From NCBI GenBank assembly GCA_017609535.1, contig JAFCDU010000001.1, forward strand, positions 4,782 through 68,781: a stretch of DNA of 64,000 nucleotides. Reading direction: 5' to 3'. The notes below the pieces were generated by a model, which was not told the DNA's origin, did not search any database, and saw nothing but the letters and a program-made list of their open reading frames with translations. Position 1 is the stretch's first letter, and every line of letters begins with the position of its first letter. The DNA comes from Candidatus Pacearchaeota archaeon. Its GTDB lineage: Archaea > Nanobdellota > Nanobdellia > Pacearchaeales > GW2011-AR1. Below are positions 1 to 34,809 of this stretch, one piece after another. The position numbers and the translations under genes were made by a program.

Positions 1-712
1 GCAAATCCTTATAATTAGAAACCTCAATCTGTTCAGTCGGCTCTCCTGCAATCTGAATCGGCAGATTCTCAGCCAAAAAAACAATCTCCTCCTCGCTGGG
101 AAGATATTGCAAATTCGTAACCCTCTCATGATAATCATAATTCTCAGTCACATATCTTCTAACCTCTTTTTCATCAGAATCATACTTAGCAAATCCAAAC
201 AACTCCCTCAAATAATCAATCAACATTAACACCATACAAGTTGCTGTTGTTCCTGCTGAACGAATAGGGCCTGAAAAATAGGCAATAAAATACCCCTCTC
301 CTTTTCTGGTTTTTCCCAATTTTAACTGAGTAAACCCCTCAATAGGAGAAGCAACAACACCCAAAGTATTATAAGCAAATCCAACCCTAATACCTGCCTC
401 AATCGCCTGCAACAAACTCTCAAATTTGCAAAATTTTTCTTTTGCAACCTCCTCTGCAATCTTAAAACTAACAGCAGCATCTAACTGCCCATACTGCTCC
501 TCTAATTCTAAAATCCTCTTAGTAACCCCAGAGCCCTTTAATTGAGGATACAATGTAGAAATCAAGCCAACAGCTTTCTCTGCAAGAGACATTGCCAACG
601 GAATCTCAACTTCATCAACTGGATCAAGCCCCTTTTTTCTTGCCTCCTCTGCAATTGCATACTCTCTCCTAACCCTCTTAACAAGCATTTCAAAATATTT
701 TTCAGTTTCCAT
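1..712 (-). CDS. DNA polymerase II (PolD) large subunit DP2, N-terminal ~237 codons only (gene continues beyond window start)
   Basis: Reverse-strand translation from ATG at 712 reads METEKYFEMLVKRVRREYAIAEEARKKGLDPVDEVEIPLA..., which closely resembles the DP2 N-terminus. The ORF track missed it because it runs off the window. It lies downstream of DP1 in an orc1-DP1-DP2 operon. Confidence 0.8.
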   Translation of the reverse strand, partial: METEKYFEMLVKRVRREYAIAEEARKKGLDPVDEVEIPLAMSLAEKAVGLISTLYPQLKGSGVTKRILELEEQYGQLDAAVSFKIAEEVAKEKFCKFESLLQAIEAGIRVGFAYNTLGVVASPIEGFTQLKLGKTRKGEGYFIAYFSGPIRSAGTTATCMVLMLIDYLRELFGFAKYDSDEKEVRRYVTENYDYHERVTNLQYLPSEEEIVFLAENLPIQIAGEPTEQIEVSNYKDL

Positions 713-759
713 ATCCCATCAATAACAATTTTTTTAACAAACCAAAATTTAATAAAAAA

Positions 760-2385
760 TTAATCATTTTCTATTTTCCCCTCAACAAAATTTTCATCTG
801 AAAAATCCAAAATCTTAATCTCGCGTGTTTTCAAATTAAACAGCGGAACCTTGCACGGATCCGGCTCATTCCCAACCTTCTCTTCAAAAGGGGTCTTCGA
901 CTGCCAGCAACTCCCAGAGACAAGCAGAATATTATTATAAGTTCCAACCTCACATCTATGCCAATCACCCGTCGCTACAATATCAGGAACCTGATTAATA
1001 CATAATGCATCTTCTTTTTCAGTTGGAATATAAGTTACTGCACTATGAGTAGGACACAAATGCCTCCTCTTCAAAATTTCCTTAACAACTCTCGGCGGGT
1101 TATTGTGCCCATAATTAAGTCTAATATCTTCAATCTCTTCAGCAAAAGTATGCATTCCTGCACCATGATACATTAAAATTCTAAACCCCCCCTCAATTTC
1201 AATTAAACACGGATTCGTAACCAAAACAACATTTTCCATGCTATTAAGTTCTGGTGCATATTCCTCTCCAATCATCGGCTGTGGCTCAGCAACCCTTACT
1301 GCATCATGCTGCCCAGGACAGATGATAATTTTAATATCTTTTCTAATCTTATTAAGAATTTCAGTTAATTTTCTATATTGGTCCCTGATATCTTCAAACT
1401 CTAAACTAAAATTCTGATTTGGATAAACCCCAACGCCATCAACATTATCGCCCAATAAAAAAAGATACTTGACTTTTTTGGCAATTTCTTTCTGCTTATT
1501 ATCATCATCCTCAAGATTAATCCACTTAACAAATTTCATAATCTCCTTTTCCAAGAACATCTTGCTCCCAACATGTAAATCAGATGTAAATGCAACCCAA
1601 ACATCATCAACATGTTTCCTCTTCTCATGAAGCACGCAGTCAGGAAAAATCACATCATTTGCATACAACCATTCAGAATCTCCTGAAACAGAAAACGCAA
1701 CAATATCATCAAGCAACAAATCCTTAGCCTTATTATAAACCTCTTTCTTATTCTGATTAATCAAAATTCTCGCACTTCCGCTTAAATCCTCAACTTCTAA
1801 CATCAAATTTTTATTTTTTGTAATTCTCTTATCAAAAACAGCAGCAATAATCGTATAATTCCCTCTTCCAGAAATTCTCCTTATTGAAGTCAAATTGTCA
1901 AATTGTCTCATTTGTAAAATCTTGCTGATAGTGTTATATCTTATCCTAAAATATTTAACAAAATCATCTACACAAACTTTTTTTGGAATAATATTTGGAG
2001 CTGAAATTAATTTAATTTTTTTATCGTTCTCCTTCTTTGTCTCCGCAAGCTCTGTTCTTTCATACCCAAAATTAATAAAAAATTTTTCCATTATCATTTT
2101 GCTCTTTCCATCAACAAAATTTCTAATTTTTTCCATATTCTTTGAAAAAACCGTTTTTGTAATCACCCTCTCCCCAATCCCCAAACCCTCAATGCTCTCA
2201 ATCACCTTTCTCGCTTCATCCTCTTCTAATTCAGAAAAAATCTCCAGCATCTCCCTATCTAACAAAAATCCCTTCTCCATACAAATCTTTAAAAGTTCTT
2301 TCTTGTTTTCAGCTTCCATTAAAACTCTTAAAATATTTATCAGATTGTAAATTATATCTTCCACATCCCAACATCTTAAATTCAT
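760..2385 (-). CDS. DNA polymerase II (PolD) small subunit DP1 (calcineurin-like phosphoesterase exonuclease subunit)
   Basis: 541-aa ORF with a C-terminal metallophosphoesterase domain (GDNVD, GQHD, TGDWH motifs). It sits between orc1 and the DP2 gene on the same strand. Confidence 0.8.
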   Translation of the reverse strand: MNLRCWDVEDIIYNLINILRVLMEAENKKELLKICMEKGFLLDREMLEIFSELEEDEARKVIESIEGLGIGERVITKTVFSKNMEKIRNFVDGKSKMIMEKFFINFGYERTELAETKKENDKKIKLISAPNIIPKKVCVDDFVKYFRIRYNTISKILQMRQFDNLTSIRRISGRGNYTIIAAVFDKRITKNKNLMLEVEDLSGSARILINQNKKEVYNKAKDLLLDDIVAFSVSGDSEWLYANDVIFPDCVLHEKRKHVDDVWVAFTSDLHVGSKMFLEKEIMKFVKWINLEDDDNKQKEIAKKVKYLFLLGDNVDGVGVYPNQNFSLEFEDIRDQYRKLTEILNKIRKDIKIIICPGQHDAVRVAEPQPMIGEEYAPELNSMENVVLVTNPCLIEIEGGFRILMYHGAGMHTFAEEIEDIRLNYGHNNPPRVVKEILKRRHLCPTHSAVTYIPTEKEDALCINQVPDIVATGDWHRCEVGTYNNILLVSGSCWQSKTPFEEKVGNEPDPCKVPLFNLKTREIKILDFSDENFVEGKIEND

Positions 2386-2399
2386 TTAATCTATCCATC

Positions 2400-3626
2400 T
2401 CACAACCCCAAACTTTCAATCATAATACTCTCAACTTTCCCATGTAAATTACTTGGAATTGACAGCTTAATCTCCCTCGTCCGCCCATGCCTGCCCTTAG
2501 AAATCACTTTAGCATTAATCAATCCAAGCATATCAATTTCAGCAATAATATCTGATACCCTCCTCTGAGTCAAAACCTCTGTCTTGATTCTATCGCACAG
2601 CTCCTGGTAATAATTATAAACATCACCTGTAAAAATCTTATCAAAATTCTTAGATTGCTTAATCTGTTTAGTCAGCTGAAAAATAGAATATAAAACAAGC
2701 TGAAACTGCTTCGGCTCTGTCTCAACAATATCTAAAATCTTGTCCCTCTCTATTTTTTCATTAGCCAAATCAATAAATCTCAGCTCAACATTCTTACTGC
2801 CCTCCCTTTCAGACAACTCTCCTGCAATTCTCATTAAATCCAATGCTCTTCGCGCATCACCATGCTCTCTTGCTGCATATGCTGCGCATTTCGCAATAAC
2901 CCCCTCATCCACCACCCCCTCTTTAAACGCTTTCTTGCACCTCTCCTGCAAAATATCCTGCAGCTGCAACGCATTGTAAGGTGGAAAAACAATCTCCTCC
3001 TCGCCAAGAGAACTTCTTACTCTCGGATCAACATTATCTAAGAAAGTTACATCATTTGAAATGCCAATCAAACTAATTTGTGCCTTGCTCAATTCTGAAT
3101 TCAATCTTGTCAAATTATAAATAAACCCGTCTGAAATTTTATTAACAGCATTATCAATCTCATCAAAAATTAAAACAACTAACTGATTTTTATTGTCAAT
3201 TAATTCAATAAATTTAGAATAAACATGGTCCGTAGGAAGCCCTGTTGCAGGAATGCTCCCTCCAAGCTCCTTAATCAAAGCAGCCAAAATCCGATATTCA
3301 GTATCTGCAATTTTCTTCAGTTTGCAATTAAGATACTCAATCCTAACATCCACCCCCATCTGATTCGCCTTTTTCAATAATTCATCCCGAACATACTGAA
3401 CAGATAATGTCTTTCCAGTCCCTGTCTTCCCATACAAAAACAAATTACTTGGCCTCTCTCCTCTTAAAATTGAAGCTAAAATTGAAGCAACCTGTTCAAT
3501 CTGCTTATCCCTATGTGGAATGCTTTCAGGAGTATGATTCGCCTGCAAAATACTCTTATCTCTAAATAAAGAATTCTCAACAGCAGATTCAAAAATATTG
3601 TCTAACTCAACAGCCATCTTCCTCAA
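2400..3626 (-). CDS. orc1: Orc1/Cdc6 replication initiator (AAA+ ATPase with C-terminal winged helix)
   Basis: Walker A YGKTGTGKT, Walker B LVVLIFDEID, 408 aa. A GGGGGTTGAGGAAG Shine-Dalgarno-like element precedes the ATG. Confidence 0.9.
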   Translation of the reverse strand: MRKMAVELDNIFESAVENSLFRDKSILQANHTPESIPHRDKQIEQVASILASILRGERPSNLFLYGKTGTGKTLSVQYVRDELLKKANQMGVDVRIEYLNCKLKKIADTEYRILAALIKELGGSIPATGLPTDHVYSKFIELIDNKNQLVVLIFDEIDNAVNKISDGFIYNLTRLNSELSKAQISLIGISNDVTFLDNVDPRVRSSLGEEEIVFPPYNALQLQDILQERCKKAFKEGVVDEGVIAKCAAYAAREHGDARRALDLMRIAGELSEREGSKNVELRFIDLANEKIERDKILDIVETEPKQFQLVLYSIFQLTKQIKQSKNFDKIFTGDVYNYYQELCDRIKTEVLTQRRVSDIIAEIDMLGLINAKVISKGRHGRTREIKLSIPSNLHGKVESIMIESLGL

Positions 3627-4049
3627 CCCCCTTTTAATCCTTCACAAAATACCCCCAATCTATTTAAACTTTCCTATACTTGAAAATATAAATTATCACC
3701 CCCATTTCAAATGGAGCAAAAAACTCAAAAAATCTAAAAAATCAATCTTAAATCGTCGAAAACATCAAAAAACCCCTACCCCCTTATTTCCTCTCCAAAT
3801 GAAATTAAAACAAACAAATTAACAACTAAAAGAATTCCATATAAATATAACATAACTATCAAACAAAAAAACAGCAATAATAAATCCCTAACTATTCAAC
3901 AAAAAACAAGTAATAATAAATCCATAATTGTATATAATTAATCTAACAAAACCTTCAACAAAAACTATAATAATCCATAATTCACATAAAACCCTTTTCA
4001 TATAATTTCACATAAAAAAATATTATAAAAAATAATTCTACAAAACTAA

Positions 4050-4125
4050 CTAAAACCAACTAAAACCATAAATCTAAAACCATAATCAATCAATAATAAC
4101 CATTTAACAAAACTATCTAAAACCA
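4050..4125. repeat. Four dispersed copies of CTAAAACCA(A/T)
   Basis: Copies at 4050, 4060, 4074 and 4117, read directly. Confidence 0.7.
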
Positions 4126-4199
4126 TATCTGATTTAACATATCCAAAAAACATAGAGAAATAGGCAGTATATAATAAAACAAAAAACATAGAGAAAAAG

Positions 4200-4237
4200 T
4201 TATAATTAATGGTTATAATTAATGGTTATAATTCAAT
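4200..4237. repeat. Tandem repeat TTATAATTAATGG, about 2.9 copies
   Basis: ttataattaatgg ttataattaatgg ttataattcaat, read directly. Confidence 0.8.
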
Positions 4238-4359
4238 ATATATAATAAAATATATAAAATCTTATAAATAAAAAATAAAAAACCCTCCAAACCTCCCTTT
4301 AAAAACATTTCCAAAAGAAATCATAGGGTGGGAGAACATATCTAATCATTTACAGAAAC

Positions 4360-4369
4360 ATTTATAAAA
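4360..4369 (+). promoter_or_regulatory. TATA-box-like element for the PRC-barrel gene
   Basis: catTTATAAAAac about 22-28 nt upstream of ATG 4390. Confidence 0.3.
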
Positions 4370-4389
4370 ACAATCAATTTAATTCTAAA

Positions 4390-4847: not shown

Positions 4848-5108
4848 ATGGAAGCAAAATTACTTGGATTTAATTTAACAAAAATTAATGTAGAAAAAAA
4901 TCAAGATTATCAAGGAGAAGTCCAGTTAAAATCAAACATCGATATAACATCCATTGAAAAACATGAATCAGAAATTAACACATTAATAATAAATATAATT
5001 CTTCAAAGATGCACCCTTCGTGCTCTGCAATTAGAAGAGGAACTTGCACTTCCATTCCATATTCAATTGCCACAGGCAAAATTACAGGCCCCAAAAGAAT
5101 CGAAATAA
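4848..5108 (+). CDS. Hypothetical small protein
   Basis: 86-aa ORF with no recognisable domain and no clear RBS. Confidence 0.25.
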   Translation: MEAKLLGFNLTKINVEKNQDYQGEVQLKSNIDITSIEKHESEINTLIINIILQRCTLRALQLEEELALPFHIQLPQAKLQAPKESK

Positions 5109-8927: not shown

Positions 8928-9545
8928 ATGGACCCAATTAAAGAAGCATTTCAAAAAGTCAAAGCTGAAATCTTAGATTTAAAGAAAGAAATTCAAGAAA
9001 TAAAACAAGAACTTCAACAGACAGACAATCCAACAGACAATCCAACACATATTCCAACACTTATCACTCTTTCAGAGCCTCTGAAACAGCCAAATTTGGC
9101 ATTTTCCACAAGAAACAGGGGGGTTCCAACAGACAATCCAACCAACAAACCAACACACCAACAGACAGACAAAAGCAATGAAAATCTATCATATCAAGCC
9201 AATTTTGATGATTTTGAACAAGCCCGCAAAATCTTAGATTCCTTAGATAACATAAAAAAGGAAATTCGCCTTAAATTTAAGCGCCTAACACCTAAGGAAA
9301 TGCTCGTTTTTTCCACAATTTATCAATTAGAAGAGAGAAATATAGAAGAGATTACCCATAAGATTTTGGCAAATATCCTTAATTTAAGTGAATCCTCTAT
9401 TAGAGAATATATAAATAAACTTACAAAAAAAGGGATCCCCATACTAAAAATACGCCAAAATAACAGGAAAATCCTCTTAAAAATCTCACAAGACCTCAAA
9501 AAAATTGCCAGTTTATCAACGATAATCCAATTAAGAGAACTATAA
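8928..9545 (+). CDS. Protein with N-terminal coiled coil, PTDNPT low-complexity repeats and C-terminal HTH (MarR/TrmB-like)
   Basis: 205 aa. Repeats TDNPTDNPTHIPT ... PTDNPTNKPT. C-terminal LTPKEMLVFSTIYQLEE...SESSIREYINKLTKKGI. Confidence 0.5.
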   Translation: MDPIKEAFQKVKAEILDLKKEIQEIKQELQQTDNPTDNPTHIPTLITLSEPLKQPNLAFSTRNRGVPTDNPTNKPTHQQTDKSNENLSYQANFDDFEQARKILDSLDNIKKEIRLKFKRLTPKEMLVFSTIYQLEERNIEEITHKILANILNLSESSIREYINKLTKKGIPILKIRQNNRKILLKISQDLKKIASLSTIIQLREL

Positions 9546-9641: not shown

Positions 9642-10250
9642 TTATTTCTCACCTTTCTTTGATTTTTTACCTGATTTAACTCTCACTTTTACACTTTTTA
9701 ACAAGATTTCCTTCTTGTTTTCAGGAATATACAACCTCTTTTTACCATTTTTTTCCCTTATCTCTCCTATCAAACCCTCACTTTTCTGTTTTATAGCATT
9801 TACTTGCCCTCTTATTGTGCTTTTATCCTTCCCTAAAAGAGCTGCCAAGTCCTCATAGCTTAGTTTTAACTCACTATTCAACAAAGCCCATACAATTGCC
9901 CTCTCCATTACTGTAAAATTAGATAAAATGGCTGTTTGGACACCCGTTTGGACAGGTGTTTGGACACCTTCAACACCTGTTTGTTTATCAACAGCTGTTT
10001 GTTGCTGTTTGGACAAAAACCATGGATTTTGGACAGAGACAATATTTCTTAATTCTTTCATCTCTTCTTGAAGTTGATAAATTAAATCTTTGAGAGATGA
10101 AATCTCATCTTCATAATTCTTATTTTTTCCGTCAATATGAGTAATCCATTGTCCTACTTTAACAAAATCCTCTCTTACTGCATCAAAAGATTTATGCATA
10201 TCATTCTTTAATTTTTCAATCTCCCTCTTTTTTCTAAGAAAACCAAACAT
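9642..10250 (-). CDS. Protein with N-terminal coiled coil, VQT repeats and C-terminal HTH
   Basis: 202 aa. QTGVEGVQTPVQTGVQT repeats are encoded by four copies of TGTCCAAACA. C-terminal winged-helix-like FTVMERAIVWALLNSELKLSYEDLAALLG. Confidence 0.5.
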   Translation of the reverse strand: MFGFLRKKREIEKLKNDMHKSFDAVREDFVKVGQWITHIDGKNKNYEDEISSLKDLIYQLQEEMKELRNIVSVQNPWFLSKQQQTAVDKQTGVEGVQTPVQTGVQTAILSNFTVMERAIVWALLNSELKLSYEDLAALLGKDKSTIRGQVNAIKQKSEGLIGEIREKNGKKRLYIPENKKEILLKSVKVRVKSGKKSKKGEK

Positions 10251-10331
10251 CTTAATAATTCCTGTTTGACGATATTTATAAATATTTCGTAAATATTTGC
10301 ATTAGGCAATGAAAAATTTTTATTTAAAATT

Positions 10332-10356
10332 TGTTCAAACACCTGTCCAAACACCC
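10332..10356 (+). repeat. Doublet of TGT(T/C)CAAACA motifs, intergenic copy 1
   Basis: tgttcaaacacctgtccaaacaccc. The same 10-mer occurs as a doublet at 12554-12575 and four times in reverse orientation inside the 9642-10250 CDS (9934-10015). Confidence 0.7.
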
Positions 10357-10388
10357 AACAATTAAATTTATCACGGCAAGTTCTTCTC

Positions 10389-10417
10389 TTTCACAAACCT
10401 AACCTAAGTGCATAAAA
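10389..10417 (+). repeat. 29-bp direct repeat, copy 1 (TTTCACAAACCTAACCTAAGTGCATAAAA)
   Basis: Identical to 11078-11106. Confidence 0.85.
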
Positions 10418-10495
10418 TCGCCGGAAGAAAAATAAAAATAAGGCCGCAAAAATGATAAACAGCAAATTTATAAACTTCAAACATCTTAAAATAAA

Positions 10496-10783
10496 ATGAG
10501 ATTTAATAAGCGGATTATATATTCCGGAGCAATCTCTTTAATTATTTTTTTCTTAGCAATGTCCATTAAAATAATCCCTTGCCAGACAGCTCCAAATGTT
10601 CCAAACCCCCAATATTCTTGGAAAATGTGCTCATTAAATCCCGACGCTGAGATAAAAACAGGAACTAAAAAACTATTCTTCGGTTTTAGTGAAAGCTTGT
10701 CAGAAACATATTTCATTGTCCTTTTAGTAACATTTATATTCTCAATGATACTATTACATTTTATAGGAAAAAGGAACATTTAA
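10496..10783 (+). CDS. Hypothetical small membrane protein (alternative: the overlapping minus-strand ORF 10486-10779)
   Basis: 95 aa with hydrophobic N- and C-terminal segments. A TATA-like aatttataaac lies about 25 nt upstream. It shares strand with the following genes. Overlapping ORFs exist on both strands, so the assignment is uncertain. Confidence 0.3.
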   Translation: MRFNKRIIYSGAISLIIFFLAMSIKIIPCQTAPNVPNPQYSWKMCSLNPDAEIKTGTKKLFFGFSESLSETYFIVLLVTFIFSMILLHFIGKRNI

Positions 10784-10819
10784 AAATATTAAAAACAAAT
10801 AAAATAAAGGAGGTGAAAA

Positions 10820-11014
10820 ATGAAAAAACAAGGAGCTGGTCCAGTGGGCATTGTTTTTTGGTTAGTTGGAATTATTGTTTCATTGGCAGTTGGCTTTGGC
10901 CTAATCAGTGGTAGTTTAGCTGTACCATACATAGGCCCAGTCAATCAAATAACTGGCTGGATTGTAGTGATTGGAACTGTTATCAATGTAATACTGGCCA
11001 TATTCAGTCAATAA
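10820..11014 (+). CDS. Small two-TM membrane protein (hypothetical)
   Basis: 64 aa. A strong AAGGAGGTGA RBS lies 6 nt upstream of the ATG. Glycine-rich TM helices. Confidence 0.55.
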   Translation: MKKQGAGPVGIVFWLVGIIVSLAVGFGLISGSLAVPYIGPVNQITGWIVVIGTVINVILAIFSQ

Positions 11015-11077
11015 ACTTACAATTTTCATTTTATTCTTTATTTTCTGATTTATTTCTTTTTCTTTTATTTAAACGAT

Positions 11078-11106
11078 TTTCACAAACCTAACCTAAGTGC
11101 ATAAAA
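11078..11106 (+). repeat. 29-bp direct repeat, copy 2
   Basis: Identical to 10389-10417. Confidence 0.85.
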
Positions 11107-11171
11107 AAATCCCCATAATAAAAAAATTAATCAAAAAATCCAAGAATTCTTCATAAAATACATAAAATTTA

Positions 11172-11227
11172 TATACTTAGGGCACCCTAAATAAACAGAT
11201 ACAACTAAATATAGATCCCTAAGTATA
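11172..11227 (+). promoter_or_regulatory. Inverted-repeat site upstream of the serine recombinase gene; candidate recombination or operator site
   Basis: TATACTTAGGG-CA-CCCTAAATA forms a palindrome with a 2-bp centre. A third half-site CCCTAAGTATA, an exact inverse of the first, lies 35 bp downstream and ends 5 nt before the ATG at 11232. Confidence 0.45.
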
Positions 11228-11231
11228 CAAA

Positions 11232-11990
11232 ATGACTTCATCAAAACCTCTCGCAGCAATTTATGTTAGGGTTTCAACACAAGAACAAGCCCAGCAAGGT
11301 TTTTCCCTCGCAGCACAACAAGAATCCTTGGAAAATTATGCAAAAGCCTTAGGTTATGAAATTTTTAAAATTTACAAGGATGAAGGAAAATCTGCAAAGG
11401 ACATAAAACACCGGCCAGCAATGGTCCAAATGCTTAAAGATGCAGAGAGCAAAAAATTTCAAGCAATATTTATTTACAAACTTGACAGATTTTCCAGAAG
11501 CTTAAAAGACCTTATCCTGACAATAGACAAACTAAAAGAATGGGGCATAGATTTTGTCTCTCTGCAGGATAAAATAGAAACTGCCTCTGCTTCAGGAAAA
11601 CTCATGTTTCACATAATCTCCGCATTCGCAGAATTTGAACGAAACATCATTGGTGACAGAACAAAATTCGGCATGGAGCGAAAAGCAAAAGAAGGAGGAT
11701 TTATAACAAAACCTCCAAAGGGCTACAGGCTAATAAACAAACAACTCGTGGTTGATGAAAAAGAAGCAGAAAGAGTCAAACAAATATTTGAACAATTTCT
11801 AAATACCAAGATATCCCTAACACAATTAGCAAAACAAAATAACATGACAACAGCAGGAGTTAAAAAGCTCCTCCAAAACACAACCTACATAGGAAAAGTT
11901 AAATTCGCAGGAAAAGAAAGCCAGGGAAATCATAAACCCATTATTTCTTTAGGACTATTCAACAAAGTTCAGAATAAATTAAATCTCTAA
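11232..11990 (+). CDS. Serine recombinase (resolvase/invertase catalytic domain plus recombinase domain)
   Basis: N-terminal catalytic motif AAIYVRVSTQEQ (nucleophile Ser), DGKSAKD, RxxxxLDRFSR. C-terminal recombinase-domain-like region ending NTTYIGKVKF...GNHKPIIS. Confidence 0.8.
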   Translation: MTSSKPLAAIYVRVSTQEQAQQGFSLAAQQESLENYAKALGYEIFKIYKDEGKSAKDIKHRPAMVQMLKDAESKKFQAIFIYKLDRFSRSLKDLILTIDKLKEWGIDFVSLQDKIETASASGKLMFHIISAFAEFERNIIGDRTKFGMERKAKEGGFITKPPKGYRLINKQLVVDEKEAERVKQIFEQFLNTKISLTQLAKQNNMTTAGVKKLLQNTTYIGKVKFAGKESQGNHKPIISLGLFNKVQNKLNL

Positions 11991-22338: not shown

Positions 22339-22479
22339 TGAGGGGAGAAGGATTCGAACCCTCGTAGGCACTAAGCCAACAGCTTTCTCGCGATTCACTC
22401 TTCAAATATTATTTCTCAATTGTAAGAGCAAATACGCTCGTCTTGAGGCTGTCCCGTTTGACCGCTCCGGCATCCCCTC
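22339..22479 (-). tRNA. tRNA-Leu (anticodon CAA) with an about 57-nt intron in the anticodon loop
   Basis: The exons match tRNA-Leu at 15305-15388 (acceptor GAGGGGA/TCCCCTC, same D, variable and T arms). Anticodon stem ACAGC...GCTGT with loop CTCAAG[intron]A. Confidence 0.75.
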
Positions 22480-22707: not shown

Positions 22708-22755
22708 TTCCTTTTAATCATTAATTTTATAAAGTTAAATTTTCTCTAATTATTA

Positions 22756-22864
22756 AGACAGCCATAATCGGTTGGTAACACCTGTTCCCTTTCCGAACAC
22801 AGAAGTTAAGCTTCCGATGTTTATGCCGGTACTGTTGAAAAATGGGAAAGCATAAAGCTGTCTT
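22756..22864 (+). rRNA. 5S rRNA (divergent, about 109 nt)
   Basis: TAACACCTGTTCCCTTTCCGAACACAGAAGTTAAGC matches the 5S consensus (...CCGAAC.C.GAAGTTAAGC). Terminal helix AGACAGCC/GGCTGTCT. Confidence 0.7.
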
Positions 22865-22908
22865 TCTTTTTAGATACCTTTTTAATTCTAAGTTATTTGC
22901 TAATTTTA

Positions 22909-23022: not shown

Positions 23023-23128
23023 GCGTGGGTAGTTCAGTGGCAGAATCTCTGCCTTCCATGTTGAAAATTCCACAAGAATTTTCTTGCGGAGTTAGCAGAT
23101 GACCCGGGTTCAAATCCCGGCCCGCGCA
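23023..23128 (+). tRNA. tRNA-Gly (anticodon TCC) with an about 35-nt intron after position 37
   Basis: Acceptor GCGTGGG/CCCGCGC. Anticodon stem TCTGC/GCAGA with loop CTTCCAT[intron]. T arm CCGGG-TTCAAAT-CCCGG. Discriminator A. Confidence 0.7.
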
Positions 23129-33894: not shown

Positions 33895-34026
33895 AGTGAT
33901 TAACACAAATAATCTTGAAAAGCAGAATATTGAAATTTATAGAAGCTCTAGGGCTATTACCCATTATAATCGTGTCGGTCTAAACCTATTGAAGAAGTAA
34001 TAATCAATAAATATTTTAAGAAAAAT

Positions 34027-34559
34027 ATGAAGATTTTAGACCTCGGGTGCGGAGTTGGAAGAACAACAAAACCATTGTATGACCTAGGATATAATGTGAT
34101 TGGTGTCGAGATAATTAAAGAGATGATTGATCTTGCCAAAAAGAAATATCCTAATATTGATTTTAGGGTGGGTGATGCTTGTAATCTAAAATTTAAAGAT
34201 GCAGAATTTGATATTGTTTTCTTTTCATTTAACGGTATGGATTACATTTTTCCAGAAAAAAAATAGTTGCATTAAAAGAGATTAATCGAGTTCTTAAAAA
34301 AGGAGGTTATTTTATATTCAGTAGCCATAACGCTAAGGGCTTATTTTTTAAGTTCAGACCTTTCTTTTTTCTTAGAAACCTGTTTAAAGGAACTTTGTTT
34401 TCAAGATATAAAATAGATACAAATAAAGACTTTGATGCTCTTTATACTTTTTATGCTTCGCCGAAATATAATATTAAACAAATAGAAAAAGCTACTAACC
34501 TAAGATTTATGGAATTTTTTAAACCTTATCTCACACCTTATTATGTATTTAAAAAATAA
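34027..34559 (+). pseudogene. Class I SAM-dependent methyltransferase interrupted by a -1 frameshift in an A8 homopolymer (34256-34263)
   Basis: Frame 1 reads MKILDLGCGVGRTT...DIVFFSFNGMDYIFPEKK then stops. The +2 frame continues IVALKEINRVLKKGGYFIFSSHN...YYVFKK. Nine A's would restore a single ORF. Confidence 0.65.
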
Positions 34560-34809
34560 ATAGTAAGAAAAATCTTGATTATTTGACACAATAAAAAAAA
34601 CATATGATGACCGCCCAAATCTATCATATCTATGGGAGCAGTTTTAAAATTAAGAAATTTGAAATTGTAAAAATTGCAGAGGGAAGAAGGTTTCCAGTTG
34701 TAAGTAAGATAATAAAGATTTTAGACAAACCCTTCTTTTGGTTGGGCATTGGAGGAAAATTTATGTATGCATTATGTGAGAAGATTTAGTTGTCCTGAAA
34801 ACATTTATA

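Follow-up and report, generated by a model that had tools for sequence, protein, structure and literature searches.

A conserved module of predicted Orc1-binding boxes and an A/T-rich tract beside the orc1-polD genes of a Pacearchaeota archaeon: a candidate replication origin within uniform strand skew

An archaeal replication origin has been defined as an A/T-rich unwinding element flanked by origin recognition boxes (ORBs) (PMC5333045). In Pyrococcus abyssi and Pyrococcus furiosus, the origin (oriC) lies immediately upstream of cdc6/orc1, which is followed by the genes of both subunits of DNA polymerase D (PolD); inverted long ORBs with invariant TTCC and GAA motifs surround A/T-rich DNA, and a second, Cdc6-bound ORB cluster is found in a nearby coding gene, dp1 (PMC1904270). 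The euryarchaeal ORB consensus reads GTTCCAGTGGAAAC-AAA----GGGGG (PMC1868953), and the mini-ORB of Sulfolobus Orc1-1 reads TTTCAGATGAAAC (PMC3089459). Here, we describe a similar locus in a 64,000-nt stretch of DNA (hereafter, the window) from a Candidatus Pacearchaeota archaeon (contig JAFCDU010000001.1), in which a non-coding gap of 763 nt (positions 3627-4389) separates orc1, on the minus strand, from a gene encoding a PRC-barrel protein, on the plus strand. Sulfolobus oriC1 contains three boxes, one of them inverted across the unwinding element, and the same arrangement is found in this gap. To our knowledge, replication in the uncultured DPANN archaea has had no experimental study. By its predicted architecture, the gap is a canonical Orc1-dependent origin.

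To place the locus among its relatives, we scanned one genome per species, drawing on metagenome-assembled genomes of Woesearchaeota, Pacearchaeota, and Nanoarchaeota; at least 8000 Orc1 homologues were scored in the Orc1 search. Forty-one related DPANN loci were found, with Orc1 proteins 56-81% identical to that of the window, and the gene order lhr, mpe, orf86, prc, gap, orc1, dp1, dp2 is common to them. The gap between prc and orc1 in these relatives measures 357-1188 nt, with a G+C content of 12-29%. No closed genome of the close family is among the Orc1 matches listed, the longest contig there being 344 kb. Conservation within the gap was then determined by an alignment-free footprint, in which 12-mers of the window were matched, with up to two mismatches, to the gaps of 30 relatives and to shuffled sequences. 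Only five blocks of the gap proved to be conserved, i.e., 3696-3716, 3773-3806, 4303-4334, 4352-4366, and 3663-3684, and these correspond to three ORB-like boxes and two promoter-like blocks. The comparison of the intergenic region across relatives that the initial annotation of this DNA had proposed as a search for ORB-like boxes thus yielded three of them. The features of the gap, from orc1 to the PRC-barrel gene, are as follows.

3663..3684, minus strand: conserved block, putative promoter of orc1; footprint matches in 12-16 of 30 relatives versus about 5 in shuffles
3696..3718, minus strand: ORB-c, 5'-CTCCATTTGAAATGGGGGTGA-3'; match to the strict ORB pattern; footprint z up to 8
3773..3806, minus strand: ORB-b, a composite box, 5'-ATTTCATTTGGAGAGGAAATAAGGGGGTAGGGGT-3'; strongest footprint in the gap
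3807..4225, no strand: lineage-specific repeat-rich spacer, holding a 36-nt tandem, the CTAAAACCA array, a 20-nt pair, and a 13-nt tandem
4226..4283, no strand: candidate DNA unwinding element (DUE), a TA-rich tract of 95% A+T; A+T maximum of the gap; period of 14 by Tandem Repeats Finder
4304..4336, plus strand: ORB-a, 5'-AACATTTCCAAAAGAAATCATAGGGTGGGAGAA-3'; inverted relative to ORB-b and ORB-c
4352..4369, plus strand: conserved block resembling a B recognition element (BRE) and TATA box, ACAGAAACATTTATAAAA, putative promoter of the PRC-barrel gene; footprint matches in 22-29 of 30 relatives versus 6-13 in shuffles

The footprint of ORB-b was found in 23 of the 30 relatives, compared to 0.6 in shuffles (z = 16), and about 20 of them have a homologue of this box at a distance of 103-331 nt upstream of orc1. 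We call ORB-b composite because its opposite strand, TCCAAATGAAAT, is itself a mini-ORB core (positions 3793-3805, also written CTCCAAATGAAAT). About 21 of the 30 relatives have a box matching ORB-c, in the same orientation, at 80-137 nt upstream of orc1; the palindrome CCATTTCAAATGG at 3702-3714 constitutes the dyad core of ORB-c. ORB-a, whose plus-strand reading is also given as TTTCCAAAAGAAATCATAGGGTGGGAG (4304-4336), is carried by 21 relatives in the form T[TC]TCCA-N3-GAAAY-N4-GGGT(GAG), with orc1 always on the other strand. When a position weight matrix was built from these 21 relatives, with the window excluded, it scored 39.4 bits at 4304-4336, the next best site in the 64 kb reaching 17.6 bits.

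The boxes share the form TCCA/TGGA-N3-GAAAY-N0-4-GGGG(T). They carry both the TTCC and the GAA motifs and resemble the euryarchaeal consensus as well as the Sulfolobus mini-ORB, the latter in the core TCCA-N3-GAAA, although the G-string follows GAAAY after 0-4 nt here, as opposed to approximately 7 nt in the euryarchaeal consensus. Compared to the sites of Sulfolobus and Aeropyrum, the sequence and spacing of these predicted boxes are lineage specific; Pyrococcus differs in having ORBs of 34 nt together with many mini-ORBs of 13 nt. We also searched with a strict pattern, [TC]TCCA-N3-GAAA-N1-6-GG[GT]G, which has three matches in the 64-kb window, with 0.0 expected. Across 31 loci, it has 28 matches in 20.6 kb of gap sequence and 19 in 342 kb outside, 18 of which fall within a single neighboring gene, so gap sequence is enriched about 24-fold for the motif. 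Repeated boxes with a mini-ORB core and a G-string, as expected of an origin, are therefore present. The initial annotation had remarked that no element here matches the canonical ORB consensus exactly, a statement that undersells the locus, as the boxes it overlooked fit the ORB core (TTCC...GAA plus a G-string); of the functional boxes, its list missed ORB-a and ORB-b and included the palindrome that is the core of ORB-c.

We next considered how the boxes are arranged. Starting from orc1 on the minus strand, the gap contains ORB-c, ORB-b, the repeat spacer, the TA-rich tract, and the inverted ORB-a, beyond which lies the PRC-barrel gene. ORB-b and ORB-c are in the same orientation, 84 nt apart, and ORB-a and ORB-b each have their G-string pointing outwards. 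In addition, the tract at 4226-4283 is bracketed by ORBs of which one is inverted, as at known origins. A pure-A/T tract with a period of about 14 nt, located approximately 30-50 nt from ORB-a, is found in most relatives, and the tract of the window probably functions in duplex unwinding. The distance from ORB-a to ORB-b, 496 nt here, is among the longest (118-689 nt in relatives), and the listed repeats form an expansion that lies between the TA-rich tract and ORB-b. In L044, whose Orc1 is only 56% identical, this layout is still recognizable, as is a distal ORB pair of the kind described below. The outer boxes are positioned 25-40 nt upstream of the two divergent putative promoters. Altogether, this layout fits the definition of archaeal origins given in the literature (PMC5333045).

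The gene abutting the gap encodes an initiator of the expected class. The genes on either side are listed below.

1..715, minus strand: PolD large subunit DP2, N-terminal 238 aa; PolC_DP2_N PF03833, 1.3e-60; extends beyond the window
760..2385, minus strand: PolD small subunit DP1; DNA_pol_E_B PF04042, 1.1e-19, and Metallophos, 4.8e-09
2400..3617, minus strand: orc1/cdc6, Orc1-1 class initiator; Pfam Cdc6_C, 8.7e-25, Cdc6_lid, 5.2e-23, and AAA
4390..4644, plus strand: PRC-barrel gene, 84 aa, conserved divergent neighbor; PF05239, 1.2e-10; syntenic in 31 loci

When compared to structures in the PDB, Orc1 best matched the origin-DNA-bound structures of Sulfolobus solfataricus Orc1-1 (2qby_A; 4.6e-103, 348 bits) and Aeropyrum pernix ORC1 (2v1u_A; 1.4e-93, 317 bits), with far weaker matches to Orc1-3 (153 bits) and to the A. 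pernix ORC2 structure 1w5s (64 bits). The adjacent Orc1 is, as judged by these matches, a clear Orc1-1 orthologue of the ORB-binding class. Like the proteins of Sulfolobus oriC1 and of the A. pernix ORC1/ORB4 complex (2QBY, 2V1U), it keeps the DNA contacts of the initiator-specific motif (ISM, "TGL"), the helix-turn-helix (HTH, "QRRVSD"), and the wing ("GRHGRT"), with identical residues aligned at G120/L121 (ISM), R341 (HTH), and R365 (wing). Mutation of G120/L121, R341, and R365 in Orc1-1 lowers specificity for the mini-ORB (PMC3089459), and the conservation of these DNA-contact residues suggests that Orc1 binds the boxes. Sulfolobus differs in having three origins with different initiators. 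An initiator-class orc1/cdc6 next to the site, another hallmark of an origin, is thus in place.

Pfam confirmed the initial assignment of orc1 followed by both PolD subunit genes on one strand, and this order, which had been likened to the oriC-cdc6-DP1-DP2 arrangement of Pyrococcus, is kept in 41 related loci. The gap itself contains A386, T203, C141, and G33, i.e., 23% G+C (77% A+T) versus 32.5% G+C for the whole window. Its description as an AT-rich stretch of about 760 bp without a supported open reading frame (ORF) held up: no supported ORF was found in the gap, a 74-aa ORF at 3598-3822 having no Pfam match, and when six-frame fragments of the gap were compared with relatives, none was conserved save the start of the PRC gene. 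A hidden coding sequence was thereby ruled out, and conservation of the region as coding sequence in relatives, which had been named beforehand as grounds for discarding the origin, was not seen. A structured RNA was likewise rejected, as Rfam gave no match in the gap at the gathering threshold and there is hardly any G on the plus strand of the spacer. The placement of the gap upstream of orc1 is correct for a minus-strand reading and not otherwise.

Altogether, the results point with near certainty to an Orc1-binding ORB/DUE module in the gap. In the mechanism that we propose, Orc1 made from the neighboring gene would bind ORB-a, ORB-b, and ORB-c, its winged helix contacting the TCCA-N3-GAAA dyad and the ISM of its AAA+ domain facing the G-string; the inverted ORB-a and ORB-b would bracket the TA-rich tract, where the duplex would open and MCM would be loaded. 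Since the outer boxes lie so close upstream of the divergent promoters, Orc1 binding would probably also tune orc1-polD expression. The short repeats are filler made by slippage, lying between the TA-rich tract and ORB-b. The boxes, with their arrangement, conservation, and specificity, and the class of Orc1 are observed here, and from them we infer that Orc1 binds the boxes, that the tract unwinds, and that the module fires in vivo.

The repeats had been put forward as candidate Orc-binding elements, and we examined them separately. All of the listed families exist and were recovered at their positions: CTAAAACCA at 4050, 4060, 4074, and 4117 (6 copies in the window versus 1.05 expected, a number reached in 0 of 100 shuffles); the 13-nt tandem of GTTATAATTAATG, 2.7 copies at 4199-4233 with 100% matches; two copies of AATAATAAATCC within a 36-nt tandem (2.1 copies) at 3851-3927; two copies of CAAAAAACATAGAGAAA at 4144 and 4180, 95% identical; and the palindrome described above. 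In the footprint, the repeat families (3850-4260) remained at background level and were conserved in none of the 30 relatives' gaps, and unrelated tandem repeats are present in 30 of 31 related gaps. In the sister strain L046, which belongs to the same species and is 97-99% identical, one 36-nt unit is lost, the CTAAAACCA array has 4-nt indels, and all three 13-mers of the GTTATAATTAATG tandem share two substitutions (GTTGTAATTAATA); the same two changes in all three copies point to concerted evolution in this array. ORB-a and ORB-b of L046 are identical to those of the window, and its ORB-c differs by one base. We therefore rejected the repeats as Orc-binding elements, as they are unconserved across relatives and variable between near-identical strains; they are fast-evolving products of slippage and serve as lineage-specific filler. 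The conspicuous repeats of such gaps are evolutionary noise, and the functional boxes are short and easily overlooked.

About a quarter of the relatives have contigs that end within the prc-orc1 gap or at its border (L004, L009, L012, L019, L023, L024, L029, L031, and L041, and also L005, L039, and L040), which suggests that assemblies often break at this hypervariable, A/T-rich, repeat-rich gap.

A further box was found outside the gap, within a coding gene.

9104..9124, plus strand: ORB-d, TTCCACAAGAAACAGGGGGGT; within the ORF at 8928-9545; same orientation as ORB-a

ORB-d is one of only three strict-pattern matches in the 64 kb. Its host gene encodes a protein of 205 aa with a coiled coil, a PTD-rich linker, and a winged helix-turn-helix (wHTH) domain (HTH_24, 22.8 bits), and at least 13 relatives have this wHTH gene, at a distance of 1.3-6 kb from orc1 in the direction of prc. 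Relatives with a box in the gene include L007, L008, L010, L011, L013, L014, L015, L018, and L020, and further L021, L033, and L035. In 14 of 14 copies, the DNA reads TTCCA[CT]AGGAAAT-N1-3-GGGGT, with synonymous sites fixed (Ser as TCC and Gly as GGG) on the G-poor strand of genomes with about 30% G+C. Five of the 13 relatives that carry the gene have two copies of the box exactly 43 nt apart, and the members of this pair are read in two frames of one ORF, as VPQEIGG and STGNRGV. Because the pair is read in two frames, the constraint at ORB-d acts on the DNA, not on the protein; an Orc1 box pair kept in this way inside a protein gene is a clear case of DNA-level constraint shaping a protein sequence. 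The distal cluster is reminiscent of the one in Pyrococcus, except that it lies across the origin from dp1, in the wHTH gene: no strict ORB match was found in dp1 in any of the 31 loci, and a second cluster of the Thermococcales type is thus absent there, the distal ORBs being in the wHTH gene on the prc side.

Strand skew is where the evidence weighs against an origin in the gap. A long-used bidirectional origin is expected to invert replication-driven skew (PMC5905446; PMC7111523). We followed the skew over approximately 79 kb, with other contigs of the same population extending the view, L045 to -5.4 kb and L047 to +73.8 kb. Throughout this range, the polarity of both GC and AT skew at third codon positions (GC3 and AT3) is unbroken, and the two flanks of the gap are alike, at 0.68-0.73 for lhr and mpe and 0.65-0.80 for orc1, dp1, and dp2. 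The spacer shows the same asymmetry with no internal switch. A skew extremum away from the locus had been named beforehand as grounds for discarding the origin. Over the 64 kb, cumulative GC skew declines monotonically, without an extremum at 3.6-4.4 kb, and the polarity is the same on both sides. Relatives also show one polarity on both sides of the gap; these include L027 and L033, where opposite-strand genes flank the gap on either side and strand effects are near 0.6. The skew inversion expected of an origin is accordingly missing from the site within this range.

The asymmetry itself is of the kind expected of replication rather than transcription, because the plus strand is C-rich at third positions whatever the orientation of the genes. 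This strand, which is also A-rich, contains 13083 C versus 7740 G in the window, and the coding-strand GC3 skew of the 51 minus-strand genes averages +0.50, that of the 21 plus-strand genes -0.22. Estimates of the strand effect are approximately 0.4-0.65 at third positions, and some relatives reach 0.9 (L001, L027, L033, and L035); in L044, a complete genome, the skew is weak over the 13 kb read. Transcription alone is an unlikely cause, since the coding-strand GC3 skew of plus-strand genes is negative or close to zero, even in blocks of several genes, and strand asymmetry is strongest in the spacer, which is untranscribed.

Two other candidates raised by the skew were dismissed. A fork barrier at ORB-d that makes replication one-sided was rejected, as lhr and mpe, between the gap and ORB-d, have no inverted skew. 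A second origin-like gap at 33895-34809, with the opposite sign of skew, is probably a frameshifted methyltransferase pseudogene: this apparent intergenic region of 915 nt reads as a class I S-adenosylmethionine (SAM)-methyltransferase (...LDLGCGVGRTT...) with a stop or frameshift.

In the literature searched, we found no relevant skew or origin data for Woesearchaeota or Pacearchaeota. The closest described case in DPANN is Candidatus Forterrea (Diapherotrites), which also combines a marked strand skew with a cdc6 gene, its origin having been predicted by skew (PMC5905446). There, the cumulative skew turns next to cdc6, a reported inversion (PMC5905446), whereas here it passes the cdc6-adjacent module without turning. 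The skew is inverted at the Pyrococcus oriC as well (Myllykallio et al. 2000, cited in PMC5905446), unlike at this locus.

Weighing these observations, we lean modestly towards the gap being an Orc1-1-type replication origin of some kind, a judgment that includes the minor case of unidirectional or strongly asymmetric firing taken up below. What favors an origin is the full geometry, which is kept to distant relatives, together with the experimental record of orc1-1-adjacent ORB clusters. Of the origin proposed initially, the gene order, the ORB/DUE architecture, and the Orc1-1 class of the initiator stand, and the repeats as binding sites do not; the lack of a skew inversion over about 79 kb also counts against it.

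The strongest competitor, which we hold to be a real possibility of clearly lesser weight, is that the gap is an Orc1 operator, autoregulating orc1-polD and the divergent prc, or a dormant or accessory origin that is rarely used. The boxes would then be genuine Orc1 sites, and the chromosome would normally be copied from another origin, whose fork passes along the direction of orc1 transcription. What favors an origin elsewhere is the skew, by which the initial annotation had itself proposed to refute its reading. The polarity does not change across the gap over at least 79 kb, here and in relatives, and orc1-dp1-dp2, lhr, and the ribosomal-protein operons are on the G-rich strand, as they would be if co-oriented with one passing fork; in addition, the outer ORBs adjoin both promoters, and dormant orc-linked origins and non-initiator roles of Orc1 are documented in other archaea (PMC5333045). 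An operator, however, needs no inverted ORB pair around a positionally conserved TA-rich tract, a layout that persists even where Orc1 identity falls to 56%. In the 79 kb covered, neither a second orc1 nor a second ORB cluster was seen, and an ORB cluster adjacent to orc1-1 is normally an active origin in the archaea studied experimentally (PMC1868953).

A special case of the origin reading, which we regard as unlikely, is unidirectional or strongly asymmetric firing, in which only the fork towards orc1-dp1-dp2 is productive, one strand is leading chromosome-wide, and the skew keeps one sign throughout. No other reading accommodates both the conserved origin architecture and an unbroken strong skew, and orc1-dp1-dp2 are co-oriented with a fork leaving the origin in that direction. 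On the other hand, the inverted ORB pair suggests symmetric helicase loading, a mid-replichore position would equally give 79 kb of uniform skew, and unidirectional replication of a cellular archaeal chromosome was not found in the literature searched. Likewise, we know of no cellular archaeal chromosome that replicates unidirectionally.

An ordinary AT-rich divergent-promoter gap with slippage repeats and no role for Orc1 is very improbable: the listed repeats do behave as slippage products, and unrelated tandem repeats occur in 30 of 31 related gaps, but three boxes are kept in sequence, position, and orientation in about 20-21 of 30 species, and their motif is enriched in the gap as given above.

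The remaining features of the locus are as follows. Orc1 starts with ATG at 3617, with an alternative TTG at 3626. The TATA-like TTTAAATAG at 3664-3672, in minus-strand reading, lies approximately 45-55 nt upstream of the orc1 ATG; the assignment of the blocks at 3663-3684 and 4352-4369 to orc1 and the PRC-barrel gene as their promoters is putative. A complete DP2 of 1147 aa is encoded on contig L045, which derives from the same population. In orf86 (4848-5108), near position 4970, contigs of the same population (L045 10436-10598) hold 161 extra nt, giving 140 aa versus 86 aa, and the copy in the window looks deleted or collapsed. Serine recombinase genes (Resolvase/Recombinase domains) are present approximately 7 kb from the gap, at 11232-11990 (plus strand) and in neighboring genes, and in L046 at 9808-11705; these are possibly a small mobile element. 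Two tRNA matches, at 22339-22479 (minus strand) and 23023-23128 (plus strand), span 141 and 106 nt versus 71 nt for the model, which suggests that these tRNA genes contain introns, and a 5S rRNA gene is located at 22754-22866 on the C-rich strand.

The origin predicted here is close to the Pyrococcus oriC-cdc6-dp1-dp2 arrangement, and what is not routine about it is the missing skew inversion, the distal in-gene ORB pair, and the irrelevance of the repeats. A textbook origin architecture in uniform, extreme skew implies that origin and orc1 are uncoupled in this lineage, that replication is asymmetric, or that the skew has an unrecognized cause. If the second of these were true, which we consider improbable, a Woesearchaeota/Pacearchaeota lineage would copy its chromosome in one direction or with a single fork, with one strand leading genome-wide, and such single-fork copying would explain how a strong skew runs uninterrupted through a conserved oriC. 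The locus provides a precise, testable origin candidate, with defined Orc1 boxes for a very large family of archaea.

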